A stretch of 11,044 nt of DNA from an uncultured Eubacteriales bacterium (lineage in GTDB: Bacteria > Bacillota > Clostridia > Christensenellales > CAG-314). The notes below the pieces were generated by a model, which was not told the origin of the DNA, did not search any database, and was given only the letters and a program-made list of their open reading frames with translations. The stretch spans positions 1 to 11,044 of the forward strand of contig URET01000038.1 of NCBI GenBank assembly GCA_900546875.1, given 5' to 3'. A program made the translations under genes and the position numbers. Positions 2,643 through 10,489 of the stretch are shown here, one piece after another; position 1 is the stretch's first letter; each line of letters opens with the position of its first letter.

Positions 2643-3281
2643 ATGGCTGAATGGTGGAACGGGATGAGTGTATTGCAGCAAGCGCTTGTGTGCATAGCCG
2701 GCAGCGCTACCTTGATCACGATAATCCAAACCATACTTGCGCTTATAGGCTTCGGTGAAGCGGACCCCGATGTGGATTTCGATATAGGCGACGACGTACC
2801 TCTTGACAGCATGGTAAATATCGGCGGACTCAGACTTTTCACTTTCAGAGGCATCATTGCCGGACTGACCGTCGGCGGATGGCTTGCATACGGTGTAAGT
2901 GTTTTGGGTTTGGACGATATATGGTCGATATTGATAGGCATAGCGGGAATGATCCTGACGATGATCGTGTTTGCCATATCGTGGAGAGCCGCGATGAGAC
3001 TGCAGGGGGACGGAGCAGTGCAGCTCAGGAATGCGGCAGGAAAACGGGCAAGAGTATATATACCTATCCCCGCATCACGCGGAGGCGTGGGTAAGGTAAC
3101 GCTGACTCTTCAGGACAGGTTTGTGGAAGCCGACGCGGTGACCGATGATAATGAAAAGCTTGTTACGGACAGTCAGGTGGAAGTCGTAGATATCATTGAC
3201 GAGAATACGCTGCTGGTGAAAAAGACAGATGCGGTCGTCGGTGAGGGCAATACTCAGGATGCCCTTAAGGAAAAGCAATGA
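2643..3281 (+). CDS. NfeD-like membrane protein (YuaF/NfeD short form): N-terminal transmembrane helices plus C-terminal OB-fold beta domain (212 aa). The start was moved from 2610 to the RBS-supported ATG at 2643.
   Basis: RBS AGGAGG at 2631-2636 lies 6 nt before ATG 2643, whereas the ATG at 2610 has no RBS. The protein has three hydrophobic helices (LVCIAGSATLITIIQTILALIGF; GIIAGLTVGGWLAYGVSVLGL; ILIGIAGMILTMIVFAISW) and then a charged beta-rich tail (GKVTLTLQDRFVEADAVTDDNEKLVTDSQVEVVDIIDENTLLVKK), typical of NfeD/YuaF partners of SPFH proteins. It sits directly upstream of a flotillin gene, as in B. subtilis yuaF-floT. Confidence 0.75.
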   Translation: MAEWWNGMSVLQQALVCIAGSATLITIIQTILALIGFGEADPDVDFDIGDDVPLDSMVNIGGLRLFTFRGIIAGLTVGGWLAYGVSVLGLDDIWSILIGIAGMILTMIVFAISWRAAMRLQGDGAVQLRNAAGKRARVYIPIPASRGGVGKVTLTLQDRFVEADAVTDDNEKLVTDSQVEVVDIIDENTLLVKKTDAVVGEGNTQDALKEKQ

Positions 3282-3403
3282 AAAATAAAACAGTATAAAA
3301 AAAACAGTATAAGAAAAAAAATATTGTGGAGAGTCTATGTTTATATGCTGTGATGTAAATAATACAGTAAGACATATCAAAAAAGGAAAGAAGGAGGAAA
3401 TCG

Positions 3404-4867
3404 ATGGTAGTAATAGGTTTTTTGCTCAGCGGAATAGTTTTTGAGCCGTTGCTGATAGCGCTTGTGATACTTGTAGTGGCGTTTCTTGTATTTCTTATTT
3501 CGAGATACCGTAAATGTCCGTCAGACAAAATACTTGTCATATACGGAAAGATAAAGGACAATAAGGACGGCACGCCGCGTTCGGCAAAGTGCATACACGG
3601 CGGAGCGTCATTGGTGTGGCCCTTTTTCCAAGGGTATCAGTACATGGATCTCACGCCCATATCGATCAGCGTCGACCTGAGAAACGCACTCAGCAGACAG
3701 AATATAAGAATTGACGTACCAAGTACTTTTACGGTAGGTATATCCACGGAGCAGGGAGTTATGCAGAATGCCGCCGAAAGGCTACTGGGACTTAAACTCA
3801 ATGAGATACAGGAGCTTGCAAAGGATATCATTTTCGGACAGCTTCGTCTTATTATAGCGACGATGGATATCGAGGAAATCAATACCGACAGAGATAAGTT
3901 CCTCGAAGCAGTGAGCAGAAACGTGGAAACAGAGCTCAAGAAGATAGGTCTCAGGCTCATAAACGTAAACGTTACCGATATAAACGACGTATCGGGCTAT
4001 ATAGACGCACTCGGAAAAGAGGCGGCGGCGAAAGCTATAAACGACGCGAAGAAGTCCGTGGCGGAGAAAAACAGAGACGGAAGCATAGGAGAAGCAAACG
4101 CTTTGATGGATCAGAGAATAAATGTTGCCGACGCCAATCAGAAAGCCATAAACGGCGAAAATGAGGCTATGGCGAAGATATCTCAGTCCAACGCCACGAG
4201 AAGGGAAGTAGAGGCGGAGTCATTAAGAAGGGCAACAACGGCGGAAAATATCGCAAAAGCCAAGGCTCTCGAAGATTCCTATACTGCTCAGATGGAAGCG
4301 GAAAAAGCGCGTGCAAGCAGAGAGAAAGCCACCTTGGAAGCCGATACGATAGTAAACGCGGAAATAGAAAAACGCAAGATGGAAATACAGGCGGAAGCCG
4401 AAGCCGAAAAGATGCGTCTTCACGCAAAGGGCGAAGCTGACGCAATATATGCCAAAATGCTGGCACAGGCAAAAGGTATCGAGGAAGTGCTCACCAAGCA
4501 GGCGGAAGGTTTTAAGAATATAGTCGAGGCGGCAGGCGGCGACGCAAACAGCGCTGTAAGACTTATGATCTCCGATAAGCTTGAGAATCTCGTGCGTATA
4601 CAGGTCGAAGCTGTAAAGAATATAAAGATCGACAAAGTCACGGTTTGGGACAGCGGAAAAGGCGAAAACGGAAACAGCTCAACAAGTAATTTTATAAGCT
4701 CGCTTTATAAATCCGTACCTCCGCTCAGCGAACTTTTCGACGCCGCAGGAATGAAACTGCCCGACTACCTCGGAACGGTAAAATCCCCCGAATCCGATCA
4801 GAATGCGGACAATAAAGACAGGCAGACAGCCGTGTCGGAAAACGTCCCCGTCAAGACCGAAGAATAG
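3404..4867 (+). CDS. floT: Flotillin-like SPFH/band-7 protein (FloT/YuaG type, 487 aa): N-terminal membrane hairpin, SPFH domain, Ala/Glu-rich coiled-coil flotillin repeats
   Basis: N-terminal hydrophobic hairpin MVVIGFLLSGIVFEPLLIALVILVVAFLVFLI, then an SPFH-like core (ISVDLRNALSRQNIRIDVPSTFTVGI...). A long EA-rich coiled-coil segment (EAEKARASREKATLEADTIVNAEIEKRKMEIQAEAEAEKMRLHAKGEADAIYAKMLAQAKG) is characteristic of bacterial flotillins. RBS 'gaaggagg' precedes the ATG at 3404. The gene symbol is given by analogy to the B. subtilis yuaF-floT pair. Confidence 0.88.
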   Translation: MVVIGFLLSGIVFEPLLIALVILVVAFLVFLISRYRKCPSDKILVIYGKIKDNKDGTPRSAKCIHGGASLVWPFFQGYQYMDLTPISISVDLRNALSRQNIRIDVPSTFTVGISTEQGVMQNAAERLLGLKLNEIQELAKDIIFGQLRLIIATMDIEEINTDRDKFLEAVSRNVETELKKIGLRLINVNVTDINDVSGYIDALGKEAAAKAINDAKKSVAEKNRDGSIGEANALMDQRINVADANQKAINGENEAMAKISQSNATRREVEAESLRRATTAENIAKAKALEDSYTAQMEAEKARASREKATLEADTIVNAEIEKRKMEIQAEAEAEKMRLHAKGEADAIYAKMLAQAKGIEEVLTKQAEGFKNIVEAAGGDANSAVRLMISDKLENLVRIQVEAVKNIKIDKVTVWDSGKGENGNSSTSNFISSLYKSVPPLSELFDAAGMKLPDYLGTVKSPESDQNADNKDRQTAVSENVPVKTEE

Positions 4868-5400: not shown

Positions 5401-5697
5401 TAATTTTTTATCGACCTTTTTTAAGCATAGAAAAAACGGCTGCAGCAGGCGATTTGTTTCGGCTGTACAGTGAGATGTTCCGATAGGCGGTCGTTTCTGA
5501 AATGTATCAGGGCTCCCGGCGGGTTTCGTGATCCGCTTTATATAACGTGTGAAACTTTCCGAAGCTATGAAGAAAAATGTTTTTTGCGATAGTACAGTAA
5601 GGTCCGGATGCGAGATCTGAAAATAAGAAAGAGAGGCCGTATTCTTCTCAGGACTTATTGACCGTTGTCTTTCTCGTATAACGCCACAGAAAGATAC

Positions 5698-6750
5698 TTA
5701 TTCATCAAAACTTATTGATGTAATGTCATTCCACAGCGTGCCTGCAAAATCGGCAACGATGTCTTTTTCTTGTTGCGTTACTGTTTTGAACATCGTAACC
5801 GACAATTTTTTATTCTTCTTTTTCCATTTGCCGACCACTTCGCCATCAATCATCAATGCAGGCATTACAATCCCTGCGAGATTGAATATCGCCCTCAAAT
5901 TCTCTTGGCTTAAAAACAAGCTTTCCTTTTTTTCGTGAGCTAAAAGAAGTTGGTCAAATCCTGCAAGGAACAGACATTTTGGAATCCCTTGATCGTAAGT
6001 CTGATTGTTGTCGATATAAAAATAGGTTTTACCTTCACATTCTGCTGTTGATACAGGCAGTTTGGAAAGCCAATCCTTAACCTGTGCGGCTGTTGCATGA
6101 AAATAGTACATGGCATCGTGAATGGTGGAAGGTCCCATGTGGGTAAAGTATCGACGAGCCATTTCAAGGTTTGCTTCTTGCTCCGGAATGGGAGTAAACG
6201 CAGGAGATAAGCAGAAAGCTTTCTTTTCCTGGACAACATAGTTTATAAATCCACGTTCGCACATTTCACGAACGCCGCCACCCCATTGGTCGAACATACT
6301 GCTTTCTTCGGGTTCGGTCATACCGTTTTGTCTGCAGACATCCTTTAATTCTTCTCTTGTCAGCTCGGAGTATTTAAGAGCATCTAAGATCACATTAGCA
6401 AAATAAGCCTGTCGCTCCGGTGTAAGTGCCCATTTATCACGCTGATTCCAAAACGTATATCCACGCCAATCGTTACGCAAATAATCTTGCCCATTATTGC
6501 AATGAATGAATAATGGCAGATCATCTTCGGCAAACACATGAACTGTTCCTCTGACTGTCCAGTTTTTTACAAGCCCATTTTTGACAGTATCCTTATTATA
6601 ATCTGAACACCTTATTTTCAGCGAGTGCATAGCGTTTACCATGAATTGCGCTTGAACACCACAAAGATCATGGAGGACGGTCATTTTATCTGTCGGTTGG
6701 AGCAAATGTTGATTTGCCATCTGACGAATTTTTATTTCTTCTATGGTCAT
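5698..6750 (-). CDS. Winged-helix HTH_42/DUF1006 protein of the AlkZ/YcaQ DNA-glycosylase family, AlkZ-like subtype with a Q-x-Q motif (350 aa)
   Basis: Length, overall composition and multiple Trp-containing motifs resemble the YcaQ/AlkZ 'winged helix DNA-binding domain-containing protein' family (recalled, not searched). The N-terminal region LHDLCGVQAQF places Q33-A34-Q35 at the position of the catalytic (H/Q)-phi-Q motif of AlkZ-like glycosylases. This is the last gene of the minus-strand operon, 15 nt after the PurN stop. Confidence 0.55.
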   Translation of the reverse strand: MTIEEIKIRQMANQHLLQPTDKMTVLHDLCGVQAQFMVNAMHSLKIRCSDYNKDTVKNGLVKNWTVRGTVHVFAEDDLPLFIHCNNGQDYLRNDWRGYTFWNQRDKWALTPERQAYFANVILDALKYSELTREELKDVCRQNGMTEPEESSMFDQWGGGVREMCERGFINYVVQEKKAFCLSPAFTPIPEQEANLEMARRYFTHMGPSTIHDAMYYFHATAAQVKDWLSKLPVSTAECEGKTYFYIDNNQTYDQGIPKCLFLAGFDQLLLAHEKKESLFLSQENLRAIFNLAGIVMPALMIDGEVVGKWKKKNKKLSVTMFKTVTQQEKDIVADFAGTLWNDITSISFDE

Positions 6751-6765
6751 CGTGTACCTACTCGT

Positions 6766-7360
6766 TCACCCTAAAACAATCTTTCCGTTGATAATGTCTG
6801 CAATCACTTCGACCAAAAAGGTATGCTCCCTTTCAAGAACTCTTGCAGCCAATATCTCCGGTGTATCGTTCTCCAATACCGGCACTGTAGTCTGAGCAAC
6901 GATCTCGCCGCTATCGTATTCGGCATTTACACGGTGAATCGTTACTCCGGTTTCTTTTTCTTTTGCTTCAATTACGGCAGTATGTACGTTCATCCCATAC
7001 ATTCCTTTGCCGCCGAACTTGGGCAGCAGAGCAGGATGGATGTTAAAGATTCTGTTGTTATACTTTTCCAAAACCGTGATATGTAACATTCTCATGTACC
7101 CAGCCAAGAAAATCATATCAACCTCGTGGGTAGCCAACACATCAAGGATTTCTTTAGCGAGAGCTTCTTCGCTTCCGAATTTTTTTTGCGCTCAAATGAT
7201 ATGCCGAAATATTCTCATTGTTGGCTCTCTGTAAAGCCATAGAATCAGCGTTATTGCTTATAACAGCCACAACCGTAGCATTGATCTTATTGCTTTTACA
7301 TCCGTCGATAATTGCTTGTAAATCACTACCTCCATGAGAGACAAAAACAGCTATATTCAT
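6766..7360 (-). pseudogene. purN: Phosphoribosylglycinamide formyltransferase (PurN-type, formyl_trans_N), interrupted by a +1 frameshift in a T8/A8 homopolymer (7180-7187). The track splits it into ORFs 7154-7366 and 6766-7140. Either a pseudogene or a sequencing indel.
   Basis: The N-terminal fragment MNIAVFVSHGGSDLQAIIDGCKSNKINATVVAVISNNADSMALQRANNENISAYHLSAKK matches the PurN N-terminus, and the downstream fragment ...LAGYMRMLHITVLEKYNNRIFNIHPALLPKFGG...VHTAVIEAKEKETGVTIHRVNAEYDSGEIVAQTTVPVLENDTPEILAARVLEREH carries the NxHP-LLP and Asp catalytic motifs. On the coding strand, removing one A from 'gcaAAAAAAAAttcgg' fuses the two into ...AYHLSAKKFGSEEALAKEILDVLATHEVDMIFLAGYMRML. The likely start is the second ATG (7358-7360), 8 nt after GGAGG. 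Confidence 0.8.
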
Positions 7361-7379
7361 ATTCATATCCTCCGTTGCT

Positions 7380-8069
7380 TTATAGTTCGGTCAAAACACC
7401 ACCGTTGAATCCGTATATGTTTTCTTTTTTGAATCCGTATAAAGACCAAGGCAAACTGATATGCGGTTCAAAAGTAAACGCTTCGACAGCGGACAGTTTT
7501 TCCGTGTTTCCTTTTTCGATGTAGATACGGTGTCTTTTATTCTTAACTATGGAATGACCCAAGTTTCCAAGAAAATCAAGGTTGACATACCCACGAGCTT
7601 TGATCTGATCGTTTATGTAGTAGAACAGCTCCTCAAAAGTTGTGTTCTCATTCACGAAACCAAGCATAGCTTCGTGCAGATAGGCTTCCATTTTGAGACC
7701 GTTTCGCCATTCATCATTCTGTATTTGCTCTATGTCTTTGACGATTTTTCCGTTTTCTACGATCAGCGTTCTGGCGTAGTCGCCCCAAATGCAGTTGTTT
7801 TGCGGGCTTAAATCTATTGTGATAATATCGTTTGACTCAATTATGTGGTCATCTGTTTTATACTCACGACCGGATACCGATACAGCGGTCTTTTCACCGG
7901 CGAAAACAAAAGCACCCACATCCCAATACCAAAAGGAAACCGCACCATGGGAAAGCATATATTCCTCACACAGTTGGCGAAGCTCAACAAGCGTCATGCC
8001 GGGCACAATAACTGTTGAAGCATATTCAATGGTGGCTCGGTTCAAATTTTGCATTTCGTGAATAGTCAT
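7380..8069 (-). CDS. M24-family (pita-bread fold, methionine-aminopeptidase-like) metallopeptidase, ~229 aa
   Basis: Alignable by eye to the MetAP core: PGMTLVELRQLCEEYMLSHGA corresponds to PGVSTGELDRICNDYIV. The two metal Asp are 11 residues apart in DIITIDLSPQNNCIWGDYARTL, followed by GHSIV (His), FTFEPHI (Glu) and a C-terminal Glu. The start is taken as ATG 8067-8069, preceded by RBS GGAG. Its ATG overlaps the TGA of the upstream Cys-rich frame (TGATG). Confidence 0.6.
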   Translation of the reverse strand: MTIHEMQNLNRATIEYASTVIVPGMTLVELRQLCEEYMLSHGAVSFWYWDVGAFVFAGEKTAVSVSGREYKTDDHIIESNDIITIDLSPQNNCIWGDYARTLIVENGKIVKDIEQIQNDEWRNGLKMEAYLHEAMLGFVNENTTFEELFYYINDQIKARGYVNLDFLGNLGHSIVKNKRHRIYIEKGNTEKLSAVEAFTFEPHISLPWSLYGFKKENIYGFNGGVLTEL

Positions 8070-8404
8070 CACTTATTCTCCAGTTGGTTGCACTTGTTTA
8101 CATACTTTGCTTGGTAATCCGAAATTTCTTTGCAAGGGTATTCCGAGCATTTAGCGCAAGCATCTGCACTTCGCTCAATGCAACACTTTTTGAATGGACA
8201 CTCTTTGCACAATTCAAATACGTTTTTTGATCTGCCACCGTCGCAGCAGGATTTTTCAAGAGGAATGTCAAGACCAAAGCTCTCTTTATAAAAACTCTGA
8301 GTCTGTCTGCGCAGGTCATCATTATTGGTTTGCGTTGCAATATAGGTAACACACTTTGAACAATCATGACCACAGTAACACGGCTTCCTGCCCGGTGATA
8401 GGGT
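8069..8404 (-). CDS. Cys-rich small protein frame (DUF3795-like: CYCGHDCSKC ... CKECPFKKCC ... CAKCSEYPC) with no canonical start codon; a possible pseudogene or mis-sequenced gene. It is in a different frame from the track's ORF 8098-8373.
   Basis: The stop-to-stop open frame (111 codons) translates to TLSPGRKPCYCGHDCSKCVTYIATQTNNDDLRRQTQSFYKESFGLDIPLEKSCCDGGRSKNVFELCKECPFKKCCIERSADACAKCSEYPCKEISDYQAKYVNKCNQLENK*. Its TGA (8069-8071) overlaps the ATG of the M24 gene, the composition is protein-like and the Cys spacing is conserved-looking, but there is no ATG/GTG anywhere in the frame (one in-frame TTG, without an RBS). A TAA lies 8 codons before the first Cys. Confidence 0.35.
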   Translation of the reverse strand, partial: TLSPGRKPCYCGHDCSKCVTYIATQTNNDDLRRQTQSFYKESFGLDIPLEKSCCDGGRSKNVFELCKECPFKKCCIERSADACAKCSEYPCKEISDYQAKYVNKCNQLENK

Positions 8405-8663
8405 TTATTTTGTTTTCCGGAAGATAATCAAACTCTGTAGATCATTTCTCAGCTTTCGATACTTAATCCGGTATATATCTCGTATATATCTCGCCGTTTT
8501 CACTTTCAATTGCACATACCATATGATGTGCATGTATAAAAGGAGAAACATCCTGAGGAGCATACTGTTCTTTTGCTTTGTAACAGAGTTTTTCCCGAAT
8601 ATCCGTATAACTTTCGTTTTCGGTTTTTATAGTTTTTGTCCATGACCGGCAGACGGAAAGCGT

Positions 8664-9263
8664 TCATACCTTCTGACTGTCGGAATTGCGGTTTATCCAG
8701 CCGAGTTCGACACGTACTTCCTTATTTTCTATATCATGGTTTGAGTAACAGTAAGCGTCAAAGCCCGCAAGACGGAATCCCTGACTCAAATAGAAATCTA
8801 TGGCGTTTACATTGCAGGATTGCGTTTCGAGTATGATCATACGGAAGCCGTGCTTTACGGCGTACTCTTTAGCTTTGTCCATAAGAGCTTTTCCGCGTCC
8901 GCGTTTACGGTACTTTTCCGAACACCACAGTTCCGTTACTCTGAGCCTGTCTGACCATTTTTCGGGATAAATTTCTATTGCGCCCGTAAGAGAGCCTTCG
9001 TCGAAGATCCCGTAAGCCGAAGCGCCCGGCCAATGGGGGGCGAAAAGTCTGTCAGGGTAATCGTAAGCTTCCGGCGAGTGCTTTACGGGAACGGAAAAAG
9101 CTTTTCTTTCAAATACAGCCGTAAATCCGGAAGTATCCGCTTTTATTTTTACGTCGTAATATTCGGAGGAGGTATATTCCACGGGAAGAATGAATCCCTT
9201 CCATTCCGACTTTTTGAGCCTCACGATCGACGGCTTCTTATTTTTTGCTTCGGGTGTGCACAT
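8664..9263 (-). CDS. GNAT-family N-acetyltransferase, streptothricin-acetyltransferase (SatA/STAT)-like, 199 aa
   Basis: Acetyl-CoA binding motif RKRGRGKALMDKAKEYA. The C-terminal block MIILETQSCNVNAIDFYLSQGFRLAGFDAYCYSN closely resembles the LETQ..N..A..FY...GF.L.G.D..Y signature of streptothricin acetyltransferases (recalled). Strong RBS AAGGAG lies 8 nt before ATG 9263. Confidence 0.7.
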   Translation of the reverse strand: MCTPEAKNKKPSIVRLKKSEWKGFILPVEYTSSEYYDVKIKADTSGFTAVFERKAFSVPVKHSPEAYDYPDRLFAPHWPGASAYGIFDEGSLTGAIEIYPEKWSDRLRVTELWCSEKYRKRGRGKALMDKAKEYAVKHGFRMIILETQSCNVNAIDFYLSQGFRLAGFDAYCYSNHDIENKEVRVELGWINRNSDSQKV

Positions 9264-9298
9264 GATATGCTGATCTCCTTGTACTGACGTTTATGTCA

Positions 9299-10489
9299 TT
9301 ATCCTATGATGGCAAGGGCGGCGTAACCCGTTCCGATCAGCACAGCCAGAAACCCGAAATTTATCAGCAGGAAAATACCGATATATTTTTTTATGTTTTC
9401 AGGCTGTACGGCGTTGAAGGAACGTAGAGTTATCAGACTTGCAAGAGACGCTATGGGAGTTCCGAGTCCTCCGATATTCACGGCGATAAGCAGACCGGCG
9501 TAGTCCTGAGTGAACTTTGAAAGCAAAACGGCGGAAGGCACGTTGGAAATAAGCTGACAAGAAAGTACGCTGAAAAGGAGCGCGTCTTCACTGATGAGCT
9601 TGCTGAAAAAATCTCTTACCGCGTCTATGCGAGCCATGTTGCCCGAGAAAATAAAAAATGCACAGAATGTGAGCAGGAGAGAGTAGTCTACTCTTAGGAG
9701 GGACTTGTAATCGAATACGATGAGCGATAGGGTTACGGCGATCAATCCCCAGTAGTAATCGAACACCCGGAAGACGATAAGTATCGAAAGCGCGAAAAGT
9801 ACCGAGTAAACGATCATGCGCCAGACGGCAGGACGTTTTTCGGGAGCGGATCTGAGTTCTATGGGAGTAGGTTTCACAAAAAGACATACCGAAAGAATAA
9901 GAACAAAAGCTACGGCAAAAGGAAGAGCCATAATCTTAAAGAATTCCGCAGCCGGGATACTGAAGAAAGAATAAAGATAAAGATTCTGAGGATTGCCGAA
10001 GGGGGTCAGCATGCCGCCGAGGTTGGCAGCCACATTCTGCATAACGAAAGTCAGGGCAGTCAGCTTACGTTCTCCGCACATGCTCAGGGCGAAAAAGCCG
10101 AGAGGAAGGAATGTGATAAGAGCCATATCGTTGGCCATTATCATAGAACCGAAATATGTAATGAAAACCAGCGCCAGAACGAGATTGCGTTTGGTTTTGA
10201 AGCGGCGTATTATGACGTTTGCAAGCCATTCGAAAAATTTGATGTTTTTGAAAGCCGCGACTACCGCAAGTGTACAGAAAAGACACGTAAGAGTTCCGAG
10301 GTCGAAATAACCTGCGTACTGATCGTCGAAGGGTACGAAAACGCACGTTACGGCAGCCGCAACTACTGCAATAAGAAGCACTATGTTATTTTTCAGTACC
10401 CCGATAAAAATAGCCTTAGTTATTCTTTTTTTCAGTGCGCCGTGCATGTGTTTGACGTTTTGGACCGGCGATTGTTCCTGTTCTTCCAT
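9299..10489 (-). CDS. Polytopic anion permease of the ArsB/NhaD (citrate-transporter-like, YbiR-type) superfamily, 396 aa. The start was moved from GTG 10570 to ATG 10489.
   Basis: About 10-12 hydrophobic helices and a TPFGNPQNLYL motif typical of ArsB/NhaD-type permeases. The GTG at 10570 would sit upstream of the predicted promoter -10, whereas ATG 10489 (MEEQEQSPV...) lies ~30 nt downstream of it with an AAGGGA RBS-like sequence. Confidence 0.75.
   Translation of the reverse strand: MEEQEQSPVQNVKHMHGALKKRITKAIFIGVLKNNIVLLIAVVAAAVTCVFVPFDDQYAGYFDLGTLTCLFCTLAVVAAFKNIKFFEWLANVIIRRFKTKRNLVLALVFITYFGSMIMANDMALITFLPLGFFALSMCGERKLTALTFVMQNVAANLGGMLTPFGNPQNLYLYSFFSIPAAEFFKIMALPFAVAFVLILSVCLFVKPTPIELRSAPEKRPAVWRMIVYSVLFALSILIVFRVFDYYWGLIAVTLSLIVFDYKSLLRVDYSLLLTFCAFFIFSGNMARIDAVRDFFSKLISEDALLFSVLSCQLISNVPSAVLLSKFTQDYAGLLIAVNIGGLGTPIASLASLITLRSFNAVQPENIKKYIGIFLLINFGFLAVLIGTGYAALAIIG

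Follow-up and report, generated by a model that had tools for sequence, protein, structure and literature searches.

What does a reading frame mean that looks like a protein throughout and has nowhere to begin? The question is raised by an 11,044-nucleotide stretch of contig URET01000038.1 from an uncultured Eubacteriales bacterium, referred to here in its full length as the window, in which a cysteine-rich frame on the minus strand runs into the start codon of an M24-family peptidase gene. A first-pass annotation, made from the letters of the sequence, had taken this frame for a translationally coupled gene lacking a start codon and had left several options: start-codon loss or a recent pseudogene, an undetected indel, or non-canonical initiation. 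Our analysis points to a recent pseudogene. The features on which the argument turns are collected in Table 1.

Table 1. Coordinates of features at the junction in the window, and fusion partners of the DUF3795 module in other loci (L numbers denote loci compared with the window)
Feature	Coordinates or locus	Strand	Remarks
M24-family peptidase gene	7380..8069	(-)	Intact, 229 aa; Pfam PF00557; downstream of the remnant
DUF3795-domain remnant	8069..8383	(-)	104 sense codons (PCYCGHDC...NQLENK) plus TGA 8071-8069; no start codon of its own
M24 Shine-Dalgarno sequence GGAG	8078..8081	(-)	8 nt before the ATG at 8069, inside the 3' end of the remnant; by sequence reading
Shadow ORF, 91 aa	8098..8373	(-)	Neighbouring frame of the remnant
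Junction base G	8384..8384	(-)	Present in both parents by alignment: last base of the linker CTG codon, or of GAG in X
Gene X 5' fragment	8385..8445	(-)	ATG 8445-8443 and first 20 codons, MIYRVDYLPENKINPITGQE; 61 bases
TAA closing the DUF3795 frame upstream	8405..8407	(-)	Direct sequence reading
Short spacer	8446..8464	(-)	Homologous to the M24-X intergenic spacer of relative L096
Partner: 280-aa domain, no family	L016, L017, L018, L033, L036, L069
Partner: APH	L020:4116-5324
Partner: GNAT	L030:626-1441; L035		L035: putative architecture, from N-terminal sequence only
Partner: SAM methyltransferase	L031:1078-2568; L052:3528-5312		Further upstream peptidase S51, or GrpB and pyrophosphatase
Partner: methyltransferase N-terminal region	L026		By sequence
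Partner: ASCH	L038:4596-5321
Partner: second DUF3795	L019
Partner: gene X	L097:4768-5838

A DUF3795 coding frame without a start codon

Translation of the minus strand from 8404 to 8069 gives TLSPGRKPCYCGHDC...NQLENK and a stop; taken from 8410, the same frame reads K-stop-TLSPGRKPCYCGHDCSKCVTYIATQTNNDDLRRQTQSFYKESFGLDIPLEKSCCDGGRSKNVFELCKECPFKKCCIERSADACAKCSEYPCKEISDYQAKYVNKCNQLENK-stop, beginning K-stop-TLSPGRKPCYCGHDCSKC and ending KCNQLENK-stop. The peptide matches Pfam PF12675 (DUF3795) at 51.1 bits, against a gathering threshold of 22.6 bits (E 1.9e-13, profile positions 3-82 of 83), and a database search returns 80 homologues, the best with an E value of ~1e-56 and 87-88% identity. Because there are both a Pfam match and 80 homologues, the frame is not a product of chance, and the proposal that it is genuine DUF3795 coding sequence is borne out. 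Relatives of the remnant are 75-91% identical at the amino acid level, the window haplotype keeps all Cys columns common to them, and 62% of the nucleotide differences from 15 relatives fall at third codon positions of this frame. As to what the domain does, the family is not known to have a function; a literature search met the term DUF3795 in one paper, once and in passing, and a PDB sequence search with the domain gave no match at E<=1 and no solved structure.

The 91-aa ORF supplied with the sequence had been suspected of being the wrong frame, and this suspicion holds. The HMM search proposed in the first-pass annotation finds DUF3795 in the Cys-rich translation and nothing in the 91-aa frame, which contains two stops in each of the relatives checked (8/8). 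Sequence comparison thus marks the 91-aa ORF as evidently a shadow frame, not a gene; it should be dropped from the annotation and the locus labelled a DUF3795 pseudogene or remnant.

It was likewise correctly observed that the frame has no ATG or GTG and that a TAA closes it only eight codons before the first Cys codon (8380-8378). These eight codons, ACC CTA TCA CCG GGC AGG AAG CCG, include none of the near-cognate starts CTG, ATT, ATC and ATA; no ATG, GTG, TTG, CTG or ATH is found from the TAA up to the first Cys cluster, and the sole TTG of the frame, at 8212, is the one listed as a 47-aa ORF. Non-canonical initiation is left with no candidate codon, and the locus lends it no support. Set beside a complete DUF3795 gene, the remnant has neither a start of its own nor an N-terminal fusion partner.

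The homology ends at a domain boundary

In blastn comparisons of the window with more than 40 loci bearing relatives of the domain, homology always starts at 8384-8380, runs to ~8073, and never reaches further upstream, its limit being the first Cys codon of CYCG or the Pro codon ahead of it. As the homology ends at 8384, the start codon was not lost by point mutation, and the sequence upstream has a different origin. A point-mutated start (ATG to AGG or AAG) was considered as a candidate and is ruled out by this same homology end. The first-pass annotation had proposed looking in related genomes for an ATG where the TAA sits; the homology of all relatives stops at 8384/8383, no ATG was ever there, and the TAA with its eight codons is the 5' end of another gene, here called X, read out of frame.

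Gene X encodes a protein of 261-284 aa that belongs to no Pfam family and is unrelated to DUF3795. The window from 8447 to 8385 is 90-94% identical in nucleotide sequence to the first 20 codons of X in L036, L069, L095, L096, and L097, and in L096 the match takes in the preceding spacer as well (2940-3018 against window 8385-8464, 91%). Across the junction the window reads AAATGATCTACAGAGTTTGATTATCTTCCGGAAAACAAAATAAACCCTATCACCGGGCAGGAA, the single base G, and then CCGTGTTACTGTGG, where L036 has AAATGATCTACAGAG-TTGATTATCTCCCAGAAAACAAAATAAACCCAATTACCGGGCAGGAATATGACAGC. The closing TAA corresponds to the X codons AAA-ATA-AAC (K-I-N) in another frame. The stub is itself broken, as an extra T in the T-run 8432-8430 creates a TGA at 8430-8428, so that the X start at 8445 reads ATG ATC TAC AGA GTT TGA and stops after five codons. 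From the X ATG to the Pro codon there are 62 nt instead of 60, the excess being one junction base and the one inserted T. No single frameshift connects the X ATG with the Pro codon; shifting by +1 at GTT-T leads back into the frame of X and to its stop at 8369-8367.

This geometry bears on programmed recoding, whereby the remnant would be translated by readthrough of the TAA from a 52-codon ORF (8563-8405) or by a frameshift from the X ATG at GTT-TGA. The 52-codon ORF is indeed in frame with the remnant and ends at the same TAA, and AGA-GTT-TGA loosely resembles CUU-UGA, the +1 frameshift site of prfB. However, this ORF is composed of spacer and out-of-frame X sequence; it looks non-protein-like, has no Pfam match, and is not conserved as coding sequence. 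From the X ATG two successive frameshifts would be needed, as a +1 shift yields only the X frame with its stop, and an Rfam scan of the whole window finds no element at the site or elsewhere near the remnant. Relatives, moreover, make the domain as part of ordinary in-frame fusions. We give recoding hardly any credence.

The two parents of the joint are neighbors elsewhere. In L036, L069, L043, and L051, X is found 1-1.5 kb upstream of genes that bear DUF3795 and points the same way as they do, and L097 has a 356-aa ORF in which the usual KLFGLP linker (...FRVICKLFGLPCYCGHDC) connects X, in frame, to the DUF3795 module. Traces of the 280-aa N-terminal domain found in relatives, or of a nucleotidyltransferase, were not detected in the window by tblastn, and none of the 22 strain contigs described below has an undeleted allele between the GNAT gene and M24. 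In a metagenome pattern scan, intact X occurred only in another gene order, M24 followed by X.

Two further observations concern this region. An M24 gene 92-94% identical in nucleotides to that of the window lies directly upstream of X in four relatives (L036:2113-3485, L095, L096, and L097:4064-5838), whereas the window has its M24 on the downstream side of both X stub and DUF3795 remnant; the M24/X order looks circularly permuted and could reflect a tandem or cassette-like unit. Separately, a perfect tandem duplication, GAGATATATAC GAGATATATAC, occupies 8471-8492 (-) in the spacer that separates the X stub from the GNAT gene; it is invariant in the 10 strain contigs aligned over it.

DUF3795 is a C-terminal module in the closest relatives

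The earlier expectation that such proteins begin near their first Cys holds for stand-alone DUF3795 members and fails for the relatives closest to the remnant (87-91% amino acid identity). The stand-alone members, found in Clostridia, are ~105 aa long, start M-x(1-12)-CYCGHDC, and are more distant from the remnant than the fusions are. The remnant shares with them the motifs CxCGxxCxxC, C-x-GG, CxxCPxxxCC, and CxxCxxYPC and is up to 75% identical to 106-aa members such as P0006, but it has neither a start codon nor the Met-x(1-12) leader. In the closest relatives, 99-297 codons lie open upstream of PCYCG, and by Pfam DUF3795 is the C-terminal domain of 240-600-aa fusion proteins, often with the same KLFGLP linker. 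To the module of these fusions the remnant is 87-91% identical in amino acids and 86-90% in nucleotides (98% for some strain alleles), and like many of them it overlaps its downstream gene by stop and start codons; unlike them, it is preceded not by an N-terminal partner and the KLFGL linker, which are missing altogether from the window, but by a 20-codon X stub out of frame. The lack of a start is a legacy of this C-terminal fusion architecture, exposed by a presumed deletion.

A functional stand-alone DUF3795 gene would have to have lost its ATG by point mutation, or to be translated at a low level from a non-canonical start near the R-K-P codons. The way in which family members begin, the open frame with all its Cys residues, and a purine run, AGGAAG, before the Cys codons are in keeping with this. 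Against it, the codons before Pro are X out of frame and homologous to no DUF3795 gene, the stretch from the TAA to the first Cys cluster offers no start of any kind, and nonsense and Cys-to-Arg alleles segregate in the species, where species-specific changes are 11 nonsynonymous to 2 synonymous. We therefore regard a functional stand-alone gene as very improbable.

The module of ~310 nt is 76-98% identical in nucleotide sequence among genomes labelled Lachnospiraceae, Ruminococcaceae, Oscillospiraceae, and Acutalibacteraceae. Its 5' boundary is fixed with at least seven partners (APH, GNAT, methyltransferase, ASCH, X, the 280-aa domain, and another DUF3795). On its other side lies GNAT in L011, L015, L016, L018, and L019, an AlkZ-like gene in L017 and L021, and an M24 stub in L033, with a stop/start overlap of the ATGA type in most relatives. 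That nucleotide sequences are so well conserved from family to family suggests that the module moves horizontally and that domains are shuffled. One could go on to view the module as a portable C-terminal cassette and a recombination hot spot in gut Clostridia, with the window copy as a failed, out-of-frame outcome of shuffling and the mosaic alleles described below as signs of ongoing exchange; we consider this broader picture speculative and rather doubtful. DUF3795 is nonetheless an uncharacterised Cys-rich module repeatedly attached to enzymes of drug-modifying types, and this apparent movement and shuffling may help to find its function.

Other members of the family also show irregular structures. 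In L028 (4746-5312) and L012 (814-1362), the N-terminal DUF3795-like half is without ~55 residues that are present in L019 (4602-5321), the gap lying between two KEKG motifs, which looks like another microhomology-type internal deletion in the DUF3795 gene family. In six database proteins (P0007, P0036, P0072, P0074, P0076, and P0079), internal parts of the module are joined to unrelated N-termini: P0007 begins like GroEL, and P0072 starts in the same wrong frame as the 91-aa ORF (MVMIVQSVLPILQ...) and then shifts into the DUF3795 frame. These proteins represent additional remnants or, alternatively, chimeras created when metagenomes were assembled across a shared repeat.

The stop/start overlap, a probable relic

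The TGA of the remnant shares its A, at 8069, with the ATG of M24 (8069-8067), in the context aataagTGATGact (aagTGATGact at 8074-8064). The overlap had been put forward as a hallmark of coupled genes. As a feature of the sequence it is real, and it resembles the ATGA and TGATG overlaps of coupled pairs; present translation of the upstream partner is where the comparison breaks down, as the remnant offers no initiation codon, M24 carries its own GGAG, and the module meets other genes in relatives. GGAG-N8-ATG is also found in front of M24 in L012 and L028, where the peptidase is 88% identical in amino acids over its full length and the DUF3795 stop is a TAG two bases before the ATG. Because the modules of relatives overlap various downstream genes, the overlap is a property of the ancestral module; it is a relic of an ancestral operon or module, not a working coupling. 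A stop/start overlap can thus outlive the upstream gene, just as a startless, protein-like frame can be the mere tail of a fusion gene. Upstream of the remnant lie the GNAT gene (8664-9263) and a CitMHS transporter gene, both recognized by Pfam.

The junction is fixed and the remnant is variable

The M24 protein is identical in 67 contigs. Public assemblies with the exact M24 protein of the window, together with two variants from its 90%-identity cluster, yielded a strain set of 22 contigs from other samples, whose record names point to differing assembly pipelines. In each of the 22, GNAT and M24 are 594 nt apart, no gene is called between them on the forward strand, and the junction and the extra T are present, the 87 bases upstream of the Pro codon being identical or one SNP off.

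These contigs bear on whether an indel or a chimeric join in one assembly merely hides the true start, a possibility raised in the first pass as an undetected indel. Such an artefact is conceivable in that the module, as a 76-98% identical repeat in many genomes, invites metagenome misassembly, and chimeric-looking database proteins such as P0007 and P0072 exist. Nevertheless, because 22/22 contigs from other assemblies have the same junction, it is not a sequencing artefact; the joint also lies outside the repeated module. We see next to no chance that an assembly error explains the locus.

Within the remnant the picture is different. Over 8072-8383 the strains (L001-L010 and L083-L094) differ by up to 12% in mosaic blocks, against 0-1% in the flanking genes, and the 23 sequences, window included, fall into 12 remnant haplotypes. 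The haplotypes are mosaics of the window type and an L017-like allele, with L083 and L086 98% identical to the domain of the intact L017 fusion. Behind this hot spot of diversity lies either gene conversion, with a paralogue or a foreign allele as donor, or repeat collapse in assembly; as the module is a repeat across genomes, some mosaic haplotypes could be metagenome-assembly artefacts. Disabling or unusual alleles are found among the strains, namely, Q27* (L004 and L009), C59R in a CxxC (L092), G49S in the conserved GG (L001), L58Q (L083), and the common F45S, and some strains have C-to-Y variants too.

What selection has acted on the remnant can be judged in part from these changes. Imported L017-like variants make up much of the within-species variation and say nothing about selection. 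Alleles found in no relative comprise 11 nonsynonymous and 2 synonymous changes, which are small numbers; this proportion (11/13) departs from the ~1:1 ratio between functional relatives (binomial p=0.011) and fits a neutral expectation of ~0.74 (p=0.30). On the other side, several observations speak against a pseudogene: the DUF3795 frame is open, with every Cys kept, in 21 sequences out of 23; decay is slight, and pairwise dN/dS of the window against relatives (0.07-0.18) is the same as that of intact relatives among themselves (0.10-0.20); and the changes private to the window, 8 nonsynonymous to 4 synonymous, are not distinguishable from those of intact relatives. As dN/dS is low, purifying selection acted on the remnant through most of its history, and its lesion is of recent date.

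The sequence might also be kept for a non-coding role, as leader, ribosome-binding site, or possible promoter spacer of M24, or as a homology patch for recombination with DUF3795 loci, and this would be compatible with a pseudogene. The M24 GGAG does lie inside the remnant, and the 12 mosaic haplotypes are confined to it between nearly invariant flanks. A ribosome-binding site, however, needs only the last ~15 nt, and the mosaics may be assembly artefacts. In a scan of 7300-9400, no promoter or terminator was convincing: promoter-like sites were fewer than after shuffling, and the remnant had none that could serve it from upstream on the minus strand. We consider a non-coding role possible but on the unlikely side.

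Origin of the remnant

The preferred reading, to which we assign a probability of roughly 85%, is that a larger gene with a C-terminal DUF3795 domain has left its 3' end behind as the Cys-rich frame, codon 20 of X having been joined to the module by deletion or illegitimate recombination, with a recent 5'-truncated pseudogene as the result. A recent pseudogene was one of the options raised in the first pass. The locus combines homology to functional genes with a structural lesion, the homologous block (8384-8073) being cut at a domain boundary.

In this scenario, codon 20 of X would have been joined to the first codon of the module (Pro-Cys-Tyr-Cys-Gly) with the loss of everything between. We infer from the neighborhoods of relatives that the direction of the event was deletion. 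If the ancestor was an X-DUF3795 fusion like that of L097, ~0.74 kb would have been lost; if it was an arrangement of X, nucleotidyltransferase, and N-domain-DUF3795 fusion like that of L069, ~2.3 kb. The joint is out of frame, with the X ATG running into the TGA and the DUF3795 frame shut upstream by the X-derived TAA. The remnant is most likely untranslated and would have drifted neutrally since the event, still looking protein-like because the event was recent. M24 would be translated from its own GGAG-N8-ATG, with the overlap left from the ancestral operon, and the remnant would now probably be only a transcribed leader that holds the M24 ribosome-binding site.

As in other deletion-generated bacterial pseudogenes, functional homologues exist, the disabling lesion is structural, gene callers pass over the locus, and disabling alleles circulate in the population. 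The remnant differs from them in being very young, with an ORF open in most strains and a main haplotype that has all Cys residues.

Other features of the window

Three observations concern genes away from the junction. A sub-threshold Rfam match to osmY RNA at 3347-3406 (+), upstream of the Band_7 gene, scores 23.3 bits against a gathering threshold of 46.9 (E 0.083) and is probably due to chance. Downstream of M24, a frameshift within an A8 stretch (7180-7187) breaks a PurN-like formyltransferase gene (6766-7366, -) in two. Among the 22 strain contigs, 9 have the broken A8 form, 7 have an intact A7 form, and 4 have A7 together with a TTG-to-TAG change two codons upstream, while the 2 further contigs are called intact at 197-199 aa; two independent inactivating lesions are segregating in one species. 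Finally, the block 5666-6752 around an AlkZ-like glycosylase gene (5698-6750, -) is 98% and 96% identical in nucleotides to L017:3039-4125 and L021:334-1420, respectively, from two metagenome-assembled genomes of which one is labelled Ruminococcaceae (HGM13222) and one Faecalimonas, where the AlkZ-like gene directly follows an intact N-domain-DUF3795 fusion. As the homology ends at the gene ends, the alignment suggests a horizontally moving module.
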